Source: Candidatus Nanoarchaeia archaeon
Lineage (GTDB): Archaea > Nanobdellota > Nanobdellia > Woesearchaeales > SM23-78
Length of the DNA stretch: 62,083 nucleotides
Direction of reading: 5' to 3'
NCBI GenBank assembly: GCA_035289665.1
Contig: DATDWO010000071.1
Location: 1 to 62,083 of the forward strand
Under the pieces are notes generated by a model. That model searched no databases. It had not been told where the DNA came from and worked only from the letters and a program-made list of their open reading frames with translations. A program made the translations under genes and the position numbers. Within the stretch, counting starts at the first letter, position 1. Every line of letters starts with the position of its first letter. This document shows, one piece after another, positions 2,362 to 55,720 of the stretch.

Positions 2362-2763
2362 ATGAAAATAGAAAGCCATCTTCGGAACTACAAAGAAAGT
2401 CTTGAGGAGCTAGAAAGAGCCATCCGAAGCGGCCTAGAAGGAAAGCAAAGAACCATTGGGTTTCATGCTTCCGTTGCCATGGTGGATTTGCTAGAGATGT
2501 TTCTGCACAAGAAAAACCTATTGAGTTCAGACCAGGTTCTAAAGCACGACTGGTTCGCTTCGAAAAACAAGATCCAAGAAAAACTATCCATACCTTTCGA
2601 CAGAAAAGAAGAAATTCTAACGCATATGCATTCCATTGAAGAAAGGCGAAACACGCTTTGCTACGGCTCGCCGCAAGAAAAACAAATTCTAGAAGAGATC
2701 ATTCAGCATTTCCAAGCATTGCGAAAAATATTCAAGGAGTTGGGGTTGGATGAAATCAAGTAA
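2362..2763 (+). CDS. HEPN-like protein paired with a nucleotidyltransferase
   Basis: Helical 133-aa protein with an ERRNTLCYG motif. Overlaps the following NTase gene by 14 nt. Confidence 0.45.
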   Translation: MKIESHLRNYKESLEELERAIRSGLEGKQRTIGFHASVAMVDLLEMFLHKKNLLSSDQVLKHDWFASKNKIQEKLSIPFDRKEEILTHMHSIEERRNTLCYGSPQEKQILEEIIQHFQALRKIFKELGLDEIK

Positions 2764-4474: not shown

Positions 4475-5182
4475 ATGCAACTCCTCCAAGTCATCCGGCA
4501 TTTGGAACAGTCATCTTTGGCTGTATTTACCATAAACGATCTGTCACGTATTCTTCGAAAACCAAAAAACTACTGCTCTCTATATCTTCACCGGCTGAAG
4601 AAAAAAGAGCATATCTTACAAGTTGAAAAGGGAAAATACGCCCTAAATGACACCAACATATACGCAATTGCATCCAATTTAATTCCTCATTCTTATGTTT
4701 CCTTCTTATCAGCATTATCTTATTACAAACTCACGACGCAGCTCCCGCAAACCATTCATGTGGTAGCCCCAAAGTCTAAAAAGCCAATCTACTTTCAAGG
4801 ATACAACCTCCACTTTGTTAAAATGAATCCTTCAAAGATTTTCAGCATAACTAAACAATATTCAGGAGGGAAAAATCTTTTTATTGGGACCAAGGAAAAA
4901 GTGATCATTGACTCCATCTACCTCCCCCGATACTGTCCTTTAAGTGAAACGTATGATGCTCTCAAAGAAGCAAAATTAGGCCTGAATGAGCTACTGCGCA
5001 CAGCTTTAAAAATGCACTCTTTTGTCCTGATGAAGCGTTTAGGCTATTTGCTTGAGAAAGAAGGCATCAACCTTTCAAGAAAAATCAAGCTAAATAAAAC
5101 CTATGATCGCCTGAATCCATTTACCCCTGGAAAAGGAAGGCGAAACGACAAGTGGAAGCTTATCGTGAATGAGGAGATCTAA
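4475..5182 (+). CDS. abiEi: AbiEi-like antitoxin / transcriptional regulator
   Basis: N-terminal wHTH (FTINDLSRILRKPKNYCSLYLHRLKKKEHILQVEKGKYAL). Stop overlaps the start of the AbiEii-like gene. Confidence 0.6.
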   Translation: MQLLQVIRHLEQSSLAVFTINDLSRILRKPKNYCSLYLHRLKKKEHILQVEKGKYALNDTNIYAIASNLIPHSYVSFLSALSYYKLTTQLPQTIHVVAPKSKKPIYFQGYNLHFVKMNPSKIFSITKQYSGGKNLFIGTKEKVIIDSIYLPRYCPLSETYDALKEAKLGLNELLRTALKMHSFVLMKRLGYLLEKEGINLSRKIKLNKTYDRLNPFTPGKGRRNDKWKLIVNEEI

Positions 5183-5946
5183 TGGATAGAAACGAATTAT
5201 CTAAGTATCAGACTGTCCTTAACTTGAACCTGGGACAGCTTGATGTCGACTATTTCCAGCACCAAATCCTCCTTCTTCTTTCCAGAACCACTTCGAATGA
5301 GCTCGTCTTTAAAGGAGGAACGGCCCTAGCCAAAGCCTTCGGTTTGAGCCGCTTCTCTGAAGACCTGGATTTTACAGCCGTCAAGAAGATAGACCTAGGA
5401 AAAATCCTTGATCGAATCGTAACAGAGCTCAGAATCATGGGCACAACGACTGAAGCAAGCCCGATAGAGAAAAAAGAAGTCTCCACCACAGGCCGATTGC
5501 GCATCCAAGGTACTACATACGATGGGACTGAGCTATCCAAACTCTCCATTCATATGGATATTTCCACTCGAGAAAAAGTAATTCTTTCCCCCCTTTTCAT
5601 CGAAATTACGCCCCTCTATCAGGACTTGCAACCCTATACGCTTCTTGTCATGAAGCCGGAAGAAATCCTGGCCGAAAAAGTAAGGGCTTTGCTTACGCGA
5701 AACAAAGCAAGGGACCTATACGACCTCTATTTCTTACTCAACAAAAAAATACCACTAAATGTAAAACTCGCTCAGGAAAAACTTTCCTATTACAGGCAAG
5801 CCTTCAACCGAAAGAAGATGGAAGAAAAGATAGGCTTGCTGAAGAAATCCTGGAAAAACGAGCTGGAACCGCTCGTGCAGGATCTTCCCCCATTCGACCA
5901 AGTCAGGAAAGCAGTGCAAGATGCCATCCACAAATCATTTGGATAG
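5182..5946 (+). CDS. abiEii: AbiEii/AbiGii-family nucleotidyltransferase toxin (DUF1814-like)
   Basis: FKGGTALAKAFGLSRFSEDLDFT is typical of the AbiEii NTase family. Confidence 0.7.
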   Translation: MDRNELSKYQTVLNLNLGQLDVDYFQHQILLLLSRTTSNELVFKGGTALAKAFGLSRFSEDLDFTAVKKIDLGKILDRIVTELRIMGTTTEASPIEKKEVSTTGRLRIQGTTYDGTELSKLSIHMDISTREKVILSPLFIEITPLYQDLQPYTLLVMKPEEILAEKVRALLTRNKARDLYDLYFLLNKKIPLNVKLAQEKLSYYRQAFNRKKMEEKIGLLKKSWKNELEPLVQDLPPFDQVRKAVQDAIHKSFG

Positions 5947-5948
5947 GT

Positions 5949-6890
5949 CTACGCTCTCGGATACAAATTATACTTATGCTGCCGTTTGCTGTAAAAATAG
6001 CTCATACTGCTCAGTGTATCTTTAAATTGAGAGCGTAGCTCTCGCAGGAAGCTGTCCAAATCTGAAATAGAAGCTGCCACATAATAAATAAAGAGCGTGG
6101 GGCTATTCGCGCTCTTAAAACAGGCACGAATCTCTTTTTTACTGCGAAGATATTGAACCAGTCGCTGCTCTTCGTTAAAAAGGTGGAAATTCAGCCATAC
6201 AAAGTACATGTTCAGCCCAAGGACACCAACATTGATTTTGGCAAGGAAACGCCGGATGATCCCTGCTTCTTTGAGGTGCTTGATGCGTGCACTCACTGTT
6301 TCATACGTTAAACCGATCCGGTCAGCCATTTCTCGAAATTGAAGTGTAGCATTTTCGTCTAAAAGAGCAAGCAATTTATGATCGGTTTTATCAGGAACCA
6401 GTGTTGAAAAAGAAGAGGGTTTAGGAAGGTTTTCCGGGAAAAAATCTTTACGAATGGGGAGCATATTTTGAAAATAGAACTTAGCGACTTCATGAACTTG
6501 GTATTGGACAATGTTTTTGGAAAAGGGTTCTAGGATCTGATTTAAAAGGGCTGGGAAAAAATCATTGAGGGGGTGAGTCATTTCTAAGATCAGATCCCAG
6601 TCTCCACTGAGTTCATCCACAATGATGACAAAGGGCAACGCACAGAGATGTTGAATAAAAGTAGAAGTTTCTTCTTCCGTCATGCTCAGCTTCAAGAAAA
6701 GTTCCCGAGTGCAATAGTTAGGTAAATCAATTTGGGCAAAGTAACCTTGAATAAGCCCTTCGTGTTCCATGCGCTGAATCTTATAGTCCACCCCATTCTT
6801 ACTGAGGCTGACTTTTTTGCCGAGCTGAAGATGGCTGATCCGGCAGTCTTGAGTAAGCTCGTACAACTTGATATTTACCTGTTCGTTCAA
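5949..6890 (-). CDS. tandem Lrp/AsnC-type transcriptional regulator
   Basis: Two HTH-AsnC-like modules (LGKKVSLSKNGVDYKIQRMEHEGLIQGY and FREMADRIGLTYETVSARIKHLKEAGIIRRF). Confidence 0.6.
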   Translation of the reverse strand: MNEQVNIKLYELTQDCRISHLQLGKKVSLSKNGVDYKIQRMEHEGLIQGYFAQIDLPNYCTRELFLKLSMTEEETSTFIQHLCALPFVIIVDELSGDWDLILEMTHPLNDFFPALLNQILEPFSKNIVQYQVHEVAKFYFQNMLPIRKDFFPENLPKPSSFSTLVPDKTDHKLLALLDENATLQFREMADRIGLTYETVSARIKHLKEAGIIRRFLAKINVGVLGLNMYFVWLNFHLFNEEQRLVQYLRSKKEIRACFKSANSPTLFIYYVAASISDLDSFLRELRSQFKDTLSSMSYFYSKRQHKYNLYPRA

Positions 6891-7068
6891 AGATCCTCAC
6901 GAAATAGATCAATTAACTCATGCACTGCGTCAAGACCATAAGGATATCATCGATCGACAAGAATATATGATTCTTTGTAAACAATTGGGGTTCAACTTAT
7001 TCCCAAAAGGGCTACTTAAGTGAGTTTATCCTTTGTTAATTTGCCTTGTAAGAATTCATTTCTTGATT

Positions 7069-10264: not shown

Positions 10265-10858
10265 ATGCGTTTAGAGCTCAAAATCATAGAAAAGCTAGTC
10301 AGGGAGGAGAAGGAGTGCACCATCCATGCCCTCTCTTTGGAACTGAGCGAGCCTTATTCCCTGCTTCATCGGAAAGTCCAAGAGCTCTCAGAAGAAGGGG
10401 TTCTATCTAAAAAAACAGCCGGAAAGGCCACGCTTTGTGCGATTAACTTGAAAAACAGCAAGGCTCGAGCTCTCCTGCACTTGACCGAAGTCAACAAAGC
10501 GCAGGCATTCATGGAAAAAAACAGGGAAGTCAGGCTCTTGTTGGCAAGCTTTGTCGAAAGGGCCAAAAACGATTATAAAAATAGCCTTTCATTCATTGTT
10601 CTTTTCGGCTCTTGGGCACAGGAACAAGCCAGTAAAGAAAGCGACATCGATCTTTTTATACTAACCAGGAAAAAATCCGATTTAGCCGGAATTTCTAGGG
10701 AGTTAAATGCCCAATACGGTTTAGAAATCAACCCTTTACAACTCACTCCGAAAGAATTTGAATCTGAGCGAGAAAAGGAACTTATAAAAACGATTCTAAA
10801 AACCCATATCGTATTATACGGGTTTGAAAGCTTCCTGGAAAAGATGTGGCCTTTATGA
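10265..10858 (+). CDS. winged-helix + minimal nucleotidyltransferase (MNT-type)
   Basis: VLFGSWAQEQASKESDIDLFIL motif. Start moved to ATG 10265 (MRLELKIIEKL). Confidence 0.75.
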   Translation: MRLELKIIEKLVREEKECTIHALSLELSEPYSLLHRKVQELSEEGVLSKKTAGKATLCAINLKNSKARALLHLTEVNKAQAFMEKNREVRLLLASFVERAKNDYKNSLSFIVLFGSWAQEQASKESDIDLFILTRKKSDLAGISRELNAQYGLEINPLQLTPKEFESEREKELIKTILKTHIVLYGFESFLEKMWPL

Positions 10859-11430
10859 ATTCCAAAGAGATCCTGTTAAAAGCACTTGAACGCCAGAAAA
10901 GAAAGGAACGCGGCCTGCGGCTCATCCAGCCGAACAAGGACTTAGCTAAAGGACACCTTGCCAAAGCAGATCACAATTTAGTGGTCATGACCGATTTAAA
11001 AAACCTGAATCACACCGACTGGGTCGTCACTACGGCTTATTATGCCATGTACCACGCCGCCACAGCCATCCTCGCCGAAGTAGGGTTGGACAGCAAAGAC
11101 CATGCCACCACAGTCGCTGTTCTATAGTATTTCTTCAGGGAAAAAATGGACGCTTTCCTGTTAGATAAATTCAACGAATTAAAGTACAAAAAAGACCGCA
11201 TGGAGCAACTCAAAATAGACGAAAAATTCATAGACTATTTCTGGAAGGCGAAACAAAATCGTGAAACCGCACAGTATGGCATCGAAACTTCTTACCAAGA
11301 AGCAGAGTTTATCATAAGGCATGCAAGAGAATTTGTCACAAAGATCAAAATCGTCCTGGAAGAATTGGATGAAAAAGTCGTGAAACTCATAGGAGAAGAA
11401 GCAAGGGAGTTGTATAATAAGGTTCATTAA
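10846..11430 (+). pseudogene. HEPN-like gene interrupted by a single in-frame TAG
   Basis: ORFs 10846..11127 and 11146..11430 are in the same frame. TAG at 11125-11127 splits ...DHATTVAVL*YFFREKMDAFLLDKF... The joined product aligns along its length with the 9321..9866 protein. Confidence 0.55.
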
Positions 11431-22120: not shown

Positions 22121-22451
22121 ATCTTTCCAGAACTCTTTCCAAGTCCTCTCGAGTAAGATCGGCTTGCTTAAGTATGCTTAGAAGCGTTCCCTTTTTTAAT
22201 TCTGAGTGCATGGGCACTACAGGCTTTCTTGTCAAGAACCGCCTATTAAGGAGGGAACATAAAATAGCGGTTCTTGAGCATGTTCAGAAATTTCCAGCTA
22301 TCCAAAAAACAGACTGATGGAAATTTCTGACATTTCATCCCATTGCGATAACCAACCATAATGACATGGCTTCCTTTCTGATCGAGAGCTTCAAAGCCAA
22401 ATTTGGAAAGAATTTGACCATTTCTTTACCAGAGAGAAGAGGAAGTTTCAT
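22119..22451 (-). pseudogene. hicA: hicA toxin pseudogene (1-nt frameshift plus 103-bp insertion)
   Basis: The ATG overlaps the hicB stop (ATGA). Reads MKLPLLSGKEMVKFFP, then a frameshift in a 3-nt run (plus ttt 22402-22404), then KFGFEALDQKGSHVIMVGYRNGMK. The insertion at 22230-22332 follows, then RKPVVPMHSELKKGTLLSILKQADLTREDLERVLER-stop. Confidence 0.7.
22230..22332. mobile_element. two-hairpin miniature element, copy A (inside hicA)
   Basis: TGTCA...TGACA termini. Hairpin 1 is 22232-22242 / 22267-22277, linker gcatgt, hairpin 2 is 22284-22295 / 22319-22330. Removing exactly 103 bp restores the hicA frame. Confidence 0.6.
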
Positions 22452-31230: not shown

Positions 31231-31320
31231 TGTCAAGAATCGCCAAATAAATATCATAGCGATTCTTGAGCATGTTCAGAACTCCACTCAATTTCAATCC
31301 TAAAAAGTGGAGTTATGACA
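31231..31320. mobile_element. two-hairpin miniature element, copy B (upstream of gyrB)
   Basis: Same architecture as copy A, TG-[tcaagaatcgc...gcgattcttga]-gcatgt-[tcagaactccac...gtggagttatga]-CA. Stem changes are compensatory relative to copy A. Confidence 0.6.
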
Positions 31321-31335
31321 TCACAAGTTATATAA

Positions 31336-34674
<3,339 letters not shown>

Positions 34675-52387: not shown

Positions 52388-53058
52388 CGTGAATGAAACA
52401 CCGTCTTGGTTCCTTCGTGCATGGTCTTGCGTTGTAACGTAATAATCACCTCTTCAATCAGAGTGATAACACCACACAGCGCACAGATATATAGGAACAG
52501 CTCAGAATAACCATACATCACGGCGTGGGCAAAGAACAAGTAAATCAGAGTCAATTCCAGCTTTCCTGAATACAAGTGCAACGGAAGGAAGCGGTGGTAA
52601 GTCCATAATTGCAGGCTTAGGTTAATGGCCAATAAAACAAAAAGACCCACAATCAAGGTGAGGTGTTCCCGAATCAAATCCGGTAGCAGGAGAAAGGCCC
52701 AAAAGATCATAGATAAGCCAATCAGGTTGTCTACAAAGCTGTCAAACGCCGCTCCAAAGTGCGTCGTCTGATTTAGTTTTCTAGCCGTGTAACCGTCTAA
52801 AATGTCGGTAAGCCCGGCAAGTAGGAAAAAAGCGGCAAAAGCCGTGCGAAGTTCAAGTAAAGCAGTAAGCCACAAAGGAAGCAGCAACACAAACCTAGAG
52901 AACGTAATCTGGTTGGGGATGGATTCCATGGCTTCATAAAAGCCAGGTTTTTTCCAAACGTTGGGCTTATTCCTTGAGCCATTTCTTCTTTTTGAGTTTC
53001 GTGTACTTTTCATGGATGGGATGCTCGCTGTCTTCATCGACTTCAACATTTTCCTCAA
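52384..53058 (-). CDS. CDP-alcohol phosphatidyltransferase
   Basis: DILDGYTARKLNQTTHFGAAFDSFVDN is the DGx2ARx8Gx3Dx3D motif. The true start may be the internal MESIPNQ. Confidence 0.75.
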   Translation of the reverse strand: MRKMLKSMKTASIPSMKSTRNSKRRNGSRNKPNVWKKPGFYEAMESIPNQITFSRFVLLLPLWLTALLELRTAFAAFFLLAGLTDILDGYTARKLNQTTHFGAAFDSFVDNLIGLSMIFWAFLLLPDLIREHLTLIVGLFVLLAINLSLQLWTYHRFLPLHLYSGKLELTLIYLFFAHAVMYGYSELFLYICALCGVITLIEEVIITLQRKTMHEGTKTVFHSR

Positions 53059-53126
53059 ACTCTTTCTCTAGTTTCTTGCGGATCTTGTCGAGTTCACTCA
53101 TAGAAAAAGCCAAGCAGTTGTTTTAT

Positions 53127-53663
53127 TTAAACTTTTAGTCTGTAAAGTTTAGCGGGCTGAGATTCTCTCTGAACGAGTCTTTCCAGGTCAAGACCTTTTG
53201 GAAGATGCAATTGATATTCATTTCTAGTCACAGATTGGAAGTCCAAAGAAGGCGGCAGGTCGCCTCTATGGACATAAATATAGCTAGCCTTAGGGGTGCG
53301 AGAAACAGGAAAAGGCCGAATCCAGTCCCATGGAAGGAACCAAACTTGGGGATTGCGCACATAAAGGCCTAAATGATGAAGAGGTGTTCCAGGATCTAAG
53401 GTTGAAACGGGGGTTCTAAAATTGTAGAGAAGAAAAGCCCAATAAAGTGTTTTATCGGGCTGTTGGGAGGGAAATTTATCTACCTGCTCATAATGGACAG
53501 GCCAAGTGAGGTGCCATCGGTCGCTTCGACACTTGAGTTCAATGCCCAGGTCTTTCCCAAGAAGGTCGATGCCATTGTTTCCGGCAACGTTCAATCCGAA
53601 CATCCTAGAGAATCGGTAAGCATGGTAGGCAGAGATGACATTCTTAAAAACTTGAGAATTCAT
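53127..53663 (-). CDS. hypothetical protein with PD-(D/E)XK-like motif
   Basis: GIDLLGKDLGIELKC fits a D...ExK nuclease core. Trp/Pro-rich C-terminal half. Leaderless-looking, with a TATA-like box ~27 nt upstream. Confidence 0.4.
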   Translation of the reverse strand: MNSQVFKNVISAYHAYRFSRMFGLNVAGNNGIDLLGKDLGIELKCRSDRWHLTWPVHYEQVDKFPSQQPDKTLYWAFLLYNFRTPVSTLDPGTPLHHLGLYVRNPQVWFLPWDWIRPFPVSRTPKASYIYVHRGDLPPSLDFQSVTRNEYQLHLPKGLDLERLVQRESQPAKLYRLKV

Positions 53664-53680: not shown

Positions 53681-53696
53681 AAGGTTTATAATCCTT
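53681..53696. promoter_or_regulatory. near-palindromic TATA-like box, potentially bidirectional
   Basis: aaggtttataatcctt lies 18-35 nt upstream of the minus-strand ATG (53663). It also lies ~25-30 nt upstream of the first hairpins on the + strand. Confidence 0.4.
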
Positions 53697-53701
53697 AGTA
53701 A

Positions 53702-53982
53702 CAAAAATCAGTGATTTTTGGAACAAAGAAATCCAATTCGGATTTCTTGTTCGAGAAGTGCCGTGCACTTCTCTGAACCAACAGAAATGCATAGCATTTC
53801 TGTGGCCCAAAAAGCGTAGCTTTTTGAGGCTTCCAAAAATTTCGTGCTAAAGCGCACAGAAAGGCCGTAGTCTTTCTGGCGCGCACAAGAGCAGCGCTCT
53901 TGGCGCAATAGGAACCATGTTCCTTTTTGCGCCAGAAACTGCTGTTTCTGAGCGCACGAAACTTTAAACCACGAAATTTTTG
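53702..53982 (+). ncRNA. candidate structured RNA / hairpin array (about 10 abutting hairpins); strand and transcription unproven
   Basis: Hairpins at 53702-20, 53721-52, 53753-73, 53778-805 and 53808-26. A 13-bp long-range stem, 53834-46 / 53970-82, encloses four GCGC-clamped hairpins (53852-82, 53881-906, 53902-33, 53929-55). The region ends in a T5 run. Confidence 0.4.
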
Positions 53983-54034
53983 TTAGGAGGAAAGCTTTAT
54001 AAGCCGGTTTCCTGTTTCTATAGATAGGTATAGG

Positions 54035-55348
54035 ATGGATCCCTTTAAGTCTTGGTTTTGGTGGAAGTCTCATGGTTCAAAGCAGGTAGACATGGACTTG
54101 TTTAAGACCACCGCTATGTTAGGTCTTATGACTTTAGCCGGTACAGTGTTTAACTTATTATTCCATGTAGTGACTTCTCGTAAGTTGGGACCGGAGGAGT
54201 ACGGTACGGTGGGAGTCATTACTTCCATTATTCTTGCAGTGACCATTGCAGGTTTGGTAAGCGAGATGGTGATCACTAAATTCATCTCCTATTATCGTAC
54301 AAGGAGTCAGGTGGAGATGATCATGTATCTTTCCTTGTCCGCATTTAAGATTTTCTTTTCGGCAGGTGTTGGCGTGGCATTGTTGCTGTTTGTGTTCAGC
54401 GGTCCGGTGGGGGATTTTTTCAATATGACAGGAAAAGGCGCGATCTTTTGGTTGGGTTTAGGGATTATCTTAGCTTCATTAGAACCTGTAGTGAACGGAA
54501 CATTAAGGGGTCTTCAAGAGTTTTTTCAGTTGAGCTTGTTGAAGTTATTCGATCCATTGCTCAGATTCATCTTTGTTTTGGTTCTTTTTTTCTTGCAGTT
54601 CAAAACAAATGGGGCGATTGCAGCATTTGTGTTCGGCGCCCTAGCAGCGTACCTATTGGCATTGAAGCCATTATGGAAATGGCGCCATTTAGAGCCTTAC
54701 AAGATTAAGCGAAAGGACATTTTAAAGTATGCCTGGCCAGTGTGTTATGTGTCTTTGGCGCTTTCTATATTGTTATACTTAGATGTAGTCTTTGCCAAGC
54801 ACTACTTGACAAAGGAACTGGCAGGGCATTACCTGGCATTGTCTATGTTGTTCAAGGTACCCTACATGATTTCAGTTTCCATGGCCTCGGTTTTCTTCCC
54901 GAAAGTGGTGGAGGCATTCAGTACAAGTCAGGAAACGGCACCTTATTTCAAGTCGATTTTGCGCTACCACTTAGCTTGCTGCGGGGTTTTACTAGCTGTT
55001 TTTCTATTCTTCCCAAACTGGGTGGTTTCAACCATTTTTGGGCCTAATTTCGGTGGGGGAGATATCTTGTTTGCAGGTACCTTGGCGTTTACCTTGCTTT
55101 CCATCATCAACTTGGTTTACTGTTATAAATTAGCTAGGGAAGAATATGACAACATCGCCTTGCTTTGGCTGGCGCTGATGTGTGACTTAATCTTCACGTT
55201 GTTGTTCCACAGCTCATTAAAACAGTTCGTAACCGTACAGATCATATTGATGGTCGTTTTATTCATCGTGGTCCTGTTGTTGGAAAAAAAGGTCGTTTTC
55301 GAGAAAGTGTACTCAAAACCATACAAACAGATTCATGTGGAGGAATAA
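54035..55348 (+). CDS. MOP-superfamily flippase (Wzx/polysaccharide biosynthesis-like)
   Basis: About 12-14 TM segments and ~437 aa. Promoter-like aaagctttataag lies upstream. Confidence 0.65.
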   Translation: MDPFKSWFWWKSHGSKQVDMDLFKTTAMLGLMTLAGTVFNLLFHVVTSRKLGPEEYGTVGVITSIILAVTIAGLVSEMVITKFISYYRTRSQVEMIMYLSLSAFKIFFSAGVGVALLLFVFSGPVGDFFNMTGKGAIFWLGLGIILASLEPVVNGTLRGLQEFFQLSLLKLFDPLLRFIFVLVLFFLQFKTNGAIAAFVFGALAAYLLALKPLWKWRHLEPYKIKRKDILKYAWPVCYVSLALSILLYLDVVFAKHYLTKELAGHYLALSMLFKVPYMISVSMASVFFPKVVEAFSTSQETAPYFKSILRYHLACCGVLLAVFLFFPNWVVSTIFGPNFGGGDILFAGTLAFTLLSIINLVYCYKLAREEYDNIALLWLALMCDLIFTLLFHSSLKQFVTVQIILMVVLFIVVLLLEKKVVFEKVYSKPYKQIHVEE

Positions 55349-55380: not shown

Positions 55381-55653
55381 ATGTACGAATTCAGCCATGA
55401 CCTATTGCATTTCATCACGGCAGCCTTGTCCATCGCTTTATTTGCCATTTCCTGGTTAACGTATAAAAAGCACAATAATCGCAAGTTTCTCTTTGTCTGC
55501 TTGGCTTTTTTTGTTTTTGCATTAAAAGAAATCATTACTGCACTGAATATTATGGTTTGGCATTCAGGCGCAATTGAAGTCTTTACGCATGCACTTAGTC
55601 TCGTTATTTTGATCTTATTTGCGATCGGTATAATCAGGGACGACAAAAAATAA
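55381..55653 (+). CDS. small membrane protein (3 TM)
   Basis: 90-aa hydrophobic ORF. A 9-bp inverted repeat cagggacga / tcgtccctg (55635-43 / 55663-71) spans its stop codon. Confidence 0.45.
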   Translation: MYEFSHDLLHFITAALSIALFAISWLTYKKHNNRKFLFVCLAFFVFALKEIITALNIMVWHSGAIEVFTHALSLVILILFAIGIIRDDKK

Positions 55654-55673
55654 AGATTATTTTCGTCCCTGTA

Positions 55674-55720
55674 TACAGCAAATGAATCCAATTATATAAA
55701 AAGAGGGGTCATTTGCTGTA
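55674..55720. promoter_or_regulatory. 12-bp perfect inverted repeat flanking a TATA-like box (operator candidate)
   Basis: tacagcaaatga 55674-85 and tcatttgctgta 55709-20 bracket attatataaaaag, upstream of the wHTH regulator gene. Confidence 0.5.

Follow-up and report, generated by a model that had tools for sequence, protein, structure and literature searches.

A probable nested double-hairpin transposon between two divergent promoters of a Woesearchaeales archaeon, and the dispersed family of hairpin doublets related to its units

Hairpin elements described elsewhere

Nested MITEs (transposable elements of the miniature inverted-repeat kind), bacterial clusters of repetitive extragenic palindromes (REPs) or interspersed mosaic elements (BIMEs), and the hairpin elements of organelles are already well known. 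Here we set beside them an array of about ten abutting hairpins in a 62,083-nucleotide (nt) stretch of DNA from Candidatus Nanoarchaeia archaeon (Woesearchaeales; contig DATDWO010000071.1 of assembly GCA_035289665.1), which we call the window. The array, a near-continuous run of palindromes at 53699-53985, lies between the minus-strand gene for a 178-residue (178-aa) protein and a flippase gene on the plus strand. We regard it as probable that the array is a non-autonomous, MITE-like double-hairpin transposon, which landed between two promoters and has since gained units of a related, widespread repeat family; this explanation covers the identity and arrival of the array, not its cellular function.

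By a MITE census, the densities of these elements in the DPANN genome of Ca. Altiarchaeum hamiconexum and in one Woesearchaea genome are among the highest in archaea (PMC11602168). Like prokaryotic MITEs, the element in the window is small (284 nt, with a basic form of 135 nt), non-coding and of strong fold-back potential; it has 10-nt inverted ends, a 4-bp duplication and an empty site in relatives, and its insertions are found in intergenic as well as coding DNA. Unlike them, the body of the element is a local pair of hairpins (here about ten hairpins) and not one long fold-back, no parent insertion sequence with the same ends was identified, and the inner TGTCA...TGACA doublets lack a target duplication.

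Two super-families of REPs are defined by the tags GTAG and CGTC (PMC3733652). With bacterial REPs, BIMEs and REPINs (REP doublets forming hairpins) the array and its relatives share short extragenic palindromes with co-varying arms and palindromy at the level of the DNA; they occur as singles, inverted doublets and larger mosaic clusters, and give rise to assembly breaks and strain polymorphism. They differ in their archaeal host, in having no GTAG/CGTC tag and in that no REP-associated tyrosine transposase (RAYT) was found nearby; moreover, the units of the cluster differ from one another beyond a CARRAA/TTYYTG foot, and the outer element duplicates its target.

Haloarchaeal palindrome-associated transposable elements (PATEs) are non-coding, hairpin-bearing archaeal elements derived from IS200/IS605, a group of insertion sequences which lack inverted ends and do not duplicate their target. 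The element in the window is likewise archaeal and non-coding, with subterminal hairpins, and its left flank (TTAG, or TTAC in a second copy) resembles TTAC, the target of IS608; unlike PATEs, however, it has inverted ends and a duplication, and its right flank changes together with the left. The double-hairpin elements of fungal mitochondria and the Rickettsia palindromic elements are small hairpin repeats of organelle or reduced genomes; repeats of this kind are mobile, some of them are double hairpins, and they invade intergenic DNA and sometimes genes, and cluster. The family in the window is unrelated to them in sequence and host, and its one in-gene copy is disruptive rather than in-frame. 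Repetitive hairpin-forming elements are also described from sponge mitochondria (PMC2800124), and palindromic repeats from Volvox organelles (PMC2670323).

The inserted element, its empty site and a second copy

Nucleotides 53699-53982 constitute an inserted element of 284 nt, two-hairpin and MITE-like, with further hairpin pairs inside. TTAG stands on its left (53695-53698) and again on its right (53983-53986), and its terminal inverted repeats, TAACAAAAAT (53699-53708) and ATTTTTGTTA (53976-53985), match at 10/10 positions; this outer stem was absent from the hairpins listed in an earlier interpretation made from the letters of the window alone (hereafter the sequence-only reading). The relatives compared have flippases 77-79% identical to that of the window, and two of them, L018 and L019, keep the divergent pair formed by the flippase gene and a homologue of the 178-aa gene; in both, the TATA boxes stand next to each other and TTAG occurs once, the insert being absent. 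Thus the window junctions CCTTAG/TAAC...TTTTTG/TTAG/GAGG correspond to ..TTAG/GAGG.. in both relatives; written out more fully, the site is ...TTTATAATCCTTAG/GAGGAAAGCTTTATAAGCC in L018 and ...TTTATAATAGTTAG/GAGGAAAGC... in L019, as against ...TTTATAATCCTTAG-(TAACAAAAAT ... AAATTTTTG)-TTAG-GAGGAAAGC... in the window. In L015, L016 and L021 the same spacer holds other hairpin elements and the 178-aa gene is absent; the spacer between these divergent genes is evidently a hot spot for the turnover of hairpin elements.

Both promoter-like boxes lie outside the element. The first, AAGGTTTATAATCC (53681-53694, minus strand), is nearly palindromic and stands about 21-22 nt from the ATG (53663) of the 178-aa gene, a spacing from the start codon which is the same in the arrayless L018 and L019. 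The sequence-only reading had taken it for the plus-strand promoter of an RNA; because it is conserved in relatives that have no array, it is best read as the promoter of the minus-strand gene, which is probably leaderless, and not as that of an array RNA. The second, AAGCTTTATAAGCC (53992-54005, plus strand), is the TATA-like box of the flippase gene (ATG 54035) and is invariant in the window, L016, L018, L019 and L021. The element itself is without coding capacity: its only open reading frames (ORFs) are two minus-strand frames on the palindromes, 53695..53886 lying wholly and 53708..54073 mostly on the inserted repeat that relatives lack, and neither has independent support, in keeping with their earlier dismissal as spurious.

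A second copy, of 135 nt, was found at 5969-6103 of another contig, L099, by BLAST of the array against all the DNA fetched. Its ends (5969-78 and 6098-6107) are identical to those in the window and its flanks are TTAC/TTAC. These differing but matched 4-bp flanks (TTAG, TTAC) agree with a real target-site duplication, and thereby with staggered-cut transposition, but not with an insertion of IS200/IS605 type. The copy splits a minus-strand Nudix hydrolase gene (5732-6275); cutting 139 nt (the element and one TTAC) from L099 gives an uninterrupted 141-aa Nudix ORF with its Nudix box intact. The element therefore also enters coding DNA and, to judge from the frameshift and stop at this gene, inactivates genes. 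The two copies that have these ends lie on separate contigs of Rifle sample 3300002502, namely L099 (C687J35174_10018252) and L004 (C687J35174_10034667); hairpins of the inner types are clearly multi-copy.

The L099 copy has the basic form TAA-(CAAAAAT..x..ATTTTTG)-GGAA/TTCC-(CAAAAATTTCGTG..y..CACGAAATTTTTG)-TTA, x and y being loops; its hairpin CAAAAATTTCGTG...CACGAAATTTTTG has a short loop (21-22 nt), and the same short-loop form is found in a strain variant of the window, L002. Against this form the array of the window resolves as follows. H1 (53702-53720, CAAAAATC-AGT-GATTTTTG) is hairpin 1 of the outer element, with CAAAAATCCGCC...GGCGGATTTTTG as its counterpart in L099. Hairpin 2 is the 13-bp stem, in which the 5' arm CAAAAATTTCGTG (53834-53846) pairs at 13/13 positions with the 3' arm CACGAAATTTTTG (53970-53982; alternative partner GCACGAAACTTT at 53954-65). 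Four units, H2-H5, lie in what is a palindromic linker of 7 nt: H2 (53721-53752, with a bulged A) and H3 (53753-53773) are within the linker GGAAC...CTTCC, which in L099 is merely GAAGTTC, and beside them are H4 (53778-53805, CAGAAATGC-ATA-GCATTTCTG, also with a bulged A) and H5 (53808-53826, CAAAAAGC-GTA-GCTTTTTG). The loop of hairpin 2 holds a 104-nt block (53852-53955) of four hairpins with GCGC feet, U1-U4 (53852-82, 53881-906, 53903-32 and 53929-55). Units of the array are 19-32 nt long. The dense array described by the sequence-only reading is thus real, with H1-H5, the 13-bp stem and the four GCGC-foot hairpins all recovered (the third at 53903-32); its 'about 10 hairpins' are most simply some five double-hairpin units, one nested in another. 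An explanation of the feet as restriction sites was rejected, as the window shows no avoidance of GCGC (113 observed vs 112 expected).

The block in the loop of hairpin 2 varies within the population. L002, which encodes an identical 178-aa protein, lacks exactly the 104 nt of U1-U4: its GTGCTAAA(TC)ACGAAAC corresponds to GTGCTAAA(104 nt)ACGAAAC in the window. Contigs L005, L007 and L008 begin a few bases from the boundary of this block, and L009 begins inside H4. The H4-H5 adjacency is repeated in L074 and L090 (85% over 48 nt), and close matches to U3 and U4 are found in L096 and L114, respectively.

What these comparisons show is an insertion of 284 nt with inverted ends in the short spacer between two divergent archaeal promoters, a duplication of TTAG, a second copy that breaks a gene, an indel among strains, hairpins that belong to a dispersed family, and palindromy of the DNA itself. 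Beyond this we propose that the outer element was presumably moved by a staggered-cut (DDE-type) transposase encoded elsewhere. The pairs H2-H3 and H4-H5 would have been added in the palindromic linker, and the pairs U1-U2 and U3-U4 in the loop of hairpin 2; if palindromes extrude as hairpins or a cruciform, these inner pairs could have entered where the DNA was single-stranded. The basic form in L099, the L002 variant and the window could accordingly be stages in a growth series, with each new unit going into a loop or linker of an older one. Co-variation of the arms may reflect the need of each unit to stay a hairpin, or to be copied as one.

The doublet family and REP-like readings

The H4 hairpin leads to a much larger family. 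Its motif (18 specified bases) occurs in at least 120 stretches of a metagenome collection, a count above chance by a rough estimate of the size of that collection; a few of the matches, in high-GC contigs, look like chance. At 8861-83 of L021 the stems of H4 are identical and the loop is different, in flanks only ~80% identical to the window. Among the matches listed, 63 of 121 occurrences are part of a canonical doublet, with the consensus (A)TGT-CAGAAATGC-nnn-GCATTTCTG-AGCATGC-TCAGAAAcc-nnn-ggTTTCTGA-CA; the flank TGT is present in 56/61, with CA as the opposite flank. In genomes whose GC content spans 29-54%, the stems are conserved base for base. For 29 partner hairpins, which were chosen by three fixed foot pairs only and were otherwise unconstrained by the search pattern, the inner six pairs are fully complementary in 27/29 copies, and in five of the six free pairs both bases vary (double-change cells number 29, as compared with 8.0 +/- 2.0 after shuffling, and there is one G-U).

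Copies which can be placed are mostly intergenic (47/58, among the matches listed) and show no preference of gene context (29 tandem, 9 convergent and 9 divergent). A role as terminators was rejected, there being no preference for convergent or tandem 3' ends. The hosts are archaeal groundwater and sediment contigs, some of them clearly archaeal, such as L026 with aEF-2. No gene family, and no transposase gene, recurs beside the copies in the fetched loci; Y1_Tnp was found neither in the 62-kb window nor in the 120 family loci listed. Scans of viral contigs with the left end, the family linker and hairpin 2 gave 0 matches each, and a metagenome search with the open frame of the array as a pseudo-protein gave 158 pattern matches, none of which was confirmed. 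Literature searches found no description of the doublet family.

The window holds six perfect family hairpins, as compared with 1.07 in controls. The elements at 22230-22336 and 31231-31326, which the sequence-only reading had connected with the array by their stem base, do belong to the same doublet family: they have the form (A)TGTCAAGAAYCGC..GCGRTTCTTGA-GCATGT-TCAGAA..stem..TGACAT, each stands in a spacer between divergent genes, and their stems differ by compensatory changes. Further doublets are found in L015 (8605-8690), L016 (~2507-2640, reverse strand) and L021 (~4600-4705); relative to the window, the last is an insertion or deletion. It has a TATA-like box on either side, and several doublets have a TATA box directly beside them. 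There are also larger arrays, such as that of L096, a 1.6-kb contig with more than 25 family hairpins in ~1.1 kb of non-coding DNA (1-1130), much larger than the array of the window. This array in L096 also contains longer internal repeats (for example GAGCATAAAGGTCG..TTTTACGGGCTCGCACTAT); beyond it come a TATA-like box and an ORF for a small membrane protein.

Two observations on single hairpins and doublets may be recorded here. At 31407-31426 of the window a perfect family-type hairpin, CAAAAATG-AACA-CATTTTTG, ends 5 nt short of the start codon (ATG, 31432) of an ORF of 1080 aa, whose translation initiation it could influence if transcribed. The doublets in L034, L045, L047, L071, L079, L086, L088 and L111 have common flanks: ..GCAGCAATAGGCCTCGCCG(GCG) stands at one end and ATTGAG at the opposite end, and in L034 this shared flank sequence is uninterrupted. 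Such flanks suggest that the doublets inserted site-specifically into some other repeat, or that they are part of a composite element of larger size.

Several of these results weigh against the array being a nested, MITE-like transposon. Only two copies with TAACAAAAAT ends were found, on separate contigs not tied to one genome; neither the window nor the fetched loci yielded an autonomous element or a transposase whose ends match; and the boundaries of the nested units show no clean duplications, so that no clean junctions can be defined for the inner units and their route of entry is one that we infer. Target duplications were likewise not found at the TGTCA...TGACA doublets, and the inner units may therefore move otherwise than the outer element, or arise by template switching. 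Conservation of the stems to the base, finally, exceeds that usual for selfish repeats, and a host factor or function could be responsible.

The alternative which best survives is a strict REP/BIME reading, in which the hairpins are single-stranded DNA substrates of a single-copy, IS200-like tyrosine (HUH) transposase (RAYT) encoded elsewhere and the array is a BIME-like cluster. The palindromes of 19-32 nt, mostly extragenic, agree with this, as do the inverted doublets, which recall REPINs, and the lack of target duplication at canonical doublets, which is as expected of IS200/IS605-type chemistry; further, the relative L021 carries a Y1_Tnp gene flanked by triloop hairpins, one of which resembles the family foot. 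However, the outer 4-bp duplication differs between copies (TTAG, TTAC), and IS200/IS605 chemistry makes none; the units of the array have no GTAG or CGTC tag and share the foot motif only, not their overall sequence; and the window and the 120 listed family loci are without Y1_Tnp. For the array as a whole we therefore think this reading unlikely; for the inner units a strict REP/RAYT origin is possible. The sequence-only reading had offered a REP/BIME-like cluster as its second proposal, and was right as to kind, in that these are dispersed, mobile, extragenic palindromic repeats; its suggestion that they are substrates of the adjacent nuclease-like protein did not hold.

The Y1_Tnp gene of L021 (10417-10875, minus strand; Pfam Y1_Tnp, E = 4.6e-28) is by eye G+C-richer than its surroundings; it follows closely on the flippase gene, downstream of it, and the DNA there has no BLAST match to the window. 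In its flanks (10360-11010) are the perfect triloop hairpins CGCTGCTAAGC-GTA-GCTTAGCAGCG and CAGGAAGC-TAC-GCTTCCTG, with CGGAGCGCGA-CCATC-TCGCGCTCCG also listed; only CAGGAAGC-TAC-GCTTCCTG resembles the family foot.

More tentatively, the doublets might be an undescribed archaeal counterpart of REPINs: long-lived hairpin replicators, conserved to the base in many DPANN and other groundwater and sediment archaea, which would be moved without target duplication by a conserved, non-RAYT enzyme acting in trans, and for which arrays such as those of the window and L096 would be favoured landing pads or would have been exapted at promoters. The candidate features of such a counterpart are TG...CA ends, a foot that is conserved (TCAGAAA/TTTCTGA), GCATGC as the linker, and an inner stem whose arms co-vary. 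We consider this idea doubtful at present.

Folding, neighbouring genes and significance

The sequence-only reading had put first a novel structured RNA of ~265 nt. As a rival to the nested transposon, this becomes a non-coding RNA gene of ~265-290 nt; transcription would proceed from the TATA box (53681-94) as far as the T-run, and the multi-hairpin fold would be the functional product. The folding energy is indeed extreme: the minimum free energy of the plus strand is -135.3 kcal/mol as compared with -74.9 +/- 5.0 for dinucleotide shuffles (z = -12.0; 0/200 shuffles as good), so that the fold stands up to the shuffled controls that had been proposed as a check. Two 120-nt segments over the array are the most over-structured of ~3,100 in the 62 kb (GC-corrected z = -6.3 each), and of only about ten distinct perfect hairpins in the whole window (stem of at least 8, loop of 3-6) five are inside 125 nt of the array. 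The tidy two-domain architecture with closing helices, the co-variation of arms across family copies and the TATA-like box ~25 nt upstream on the plus strand, itself nearly palindromic, also speak for an RNA.

Against this, the minus strand folds as well as the plus strand (-135.4 kcal/mol, z = -12.5), with DNA parameters the two strands give -88.5 and -89.5, and on either strand there are only 2-3 G-U pairs among ~115, in folds of -134.5 and -134.7 kcal/mol. Each unit being palindromic, its purine-rich arm is 5' on both strands and no transcribed strand is singled out; the CA(A/G)AA...TT(C/T)TG regularity of the arms that had been pointed out earlier is thus a property of each palindrome, and not a strand asymmetry. 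The array is missing from the orthologous locus of the closest relatives, L018 and L019, it has inverted ends and a target duplication, its sibling copy breaks an ORF, one whole 'domain' is absent from a co-occurring strain (L002), and the TATA box is accounted for by the minus-strand gene. Rfam 15, searched with the window and the canonical doublet copies, gave no match to a known family at the gathering score, as the sequence-only reading had supposed; with an E-value threshold, the only matches at the locus were sub-threshold and at chance level, to unrelated small RNA, microRNA, small nuclear RNA and small nucleolar RNA families. An RNA gene is accordingly a very improbable explanation of the array. 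Scans for tRNA and tmRNA found none, and a scan for bacterial-type promoters and terminators found nothing relevant; CRISPR, retron, integron attC, replication origin and H/ACA or C/D small RNA were dropped, as their defining repeats, boxes or neighbouring genes are missing, judging from the sequence.

An exapted regulatory or insulating element, which might block read-through from the near-symmetric TATA boxes (conceivable as the 3' arm of each hairpin is T-rich whichever strand is read) or bind a host factor, would suit the position of the array exactly between two TATA boxes, the similar position of the L021 doublet, the several doublets that abut TATA boxes and the conservation of the foot motif across diverse genomes, but is hardly likely given that no one gene context (divergent 9, convergent 9, tandem 29) is preferred by the family, that relatives manage without an array at this locus and that one copy is inside a gene (L099).

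The 178-aa gene which adjoins the element (53127-53663, minus strand) encodes a protein of PD-(D/E)XK-type fold. The residues D33, E42 and K44 are invariant in 49 homologues, the AlphaFold2 model has a confidence score (pLDDT) of 92, and in the Protein Data Bank (PDB) Foldseek matches it best to DpnI, archaeal Hjc resolvases, EcoRV and PvuII, in each case weakly (E from 1.5e-3, template-modelling scores 0.3-0.45); no Pfam match and no PDB sequence match was found. With invariant catalytic-type residues, a confident model and weak nuclease fold matches, the description 'PD-(D/E)XK-like' given earlier is fair. The proposed link between this gene and the array found no support: five loci with homologues of the gene (L011, L013, L014, L018 and L019) are without an array, the upstream spacers at homologue loci L011-L014 are 46-80 nt long and contain nothing over-structured, L021 and L015 have hairpins and no 178-aa gene, and none of the 120 hairpin-family loci listed encodes a homologue.

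Other genes near the array in the window are archaeal, and include those for a PIN-ATPase-KH protein, a class II aminoacyl-tRNA synthetase with tRNA_bind_4 and an HVO_0163-type helix-turn-helix (HTH) protein; the closest relatives are groundwater metagenome-assembled genomes (MAGs) labelled Woesearchaeota or Nanoarchaeota. L021 (CAYOJS010000019.1) is labelled 'uncultured Methanosarcinales archaeon', and its collinearity with the DPANN-like window, at ~80% nucleotide identity over >8 kb, suggests that this label is probably a binning or naming error. On a contig of a Nanoarchaeota MAG, L015, beside genes syntenic with the window, a 690-aa ORF (4895-6967) has Plug and TonB-dependent receptor beta-barrel domains; such an outer-membrane receptor is unexpected in an archaeon. 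A 44-aa ORF, overlapping and just upstream of the CDP-alcohol phosphatidyltransferase gene, is conserved in all relatives (window ~52974-53108, minus strand; L016 2341-2475; L018 4123-4257; L021 8641-8775) and has been annotated as a gene in several assemblies; it may encode a small protein in its own right, or else the actual N-terminus of the transferase. At 55635-55715, two abutting hairpins rank third in the window by excess of structure: CAGGGACGA...TCGTCCCTG spans the stop codon of a 90-aa ORF, and ATACAGCAAATGA...TCATTTGCTGTAT encloses TTATATAAAAAG, a TATA-like box of the HTH gene.

For annotation, the nested transposon that we propose implies that nested mobile palindromes can lie behind very strong 'structured RNA' signals of DPANN genomes, and that such elements account for the contig breaks and spurious ORFs at these sites. 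The array offers a stepwise picture of how hairpin clusters may grow. The remaining interest, however, is in the family behind it: a sequence-conserved, co-varying double-hairpin repeat which is present in many archaeal contigs and absent from Rfam, and beside whose copies no associated gene was found. This doublet family may matter more than the array itself, and it provides a tractable way into the spread of small non-autonomous elements in the reduced genomes of DPANN archaea, and into the enzyme that mobilises them.

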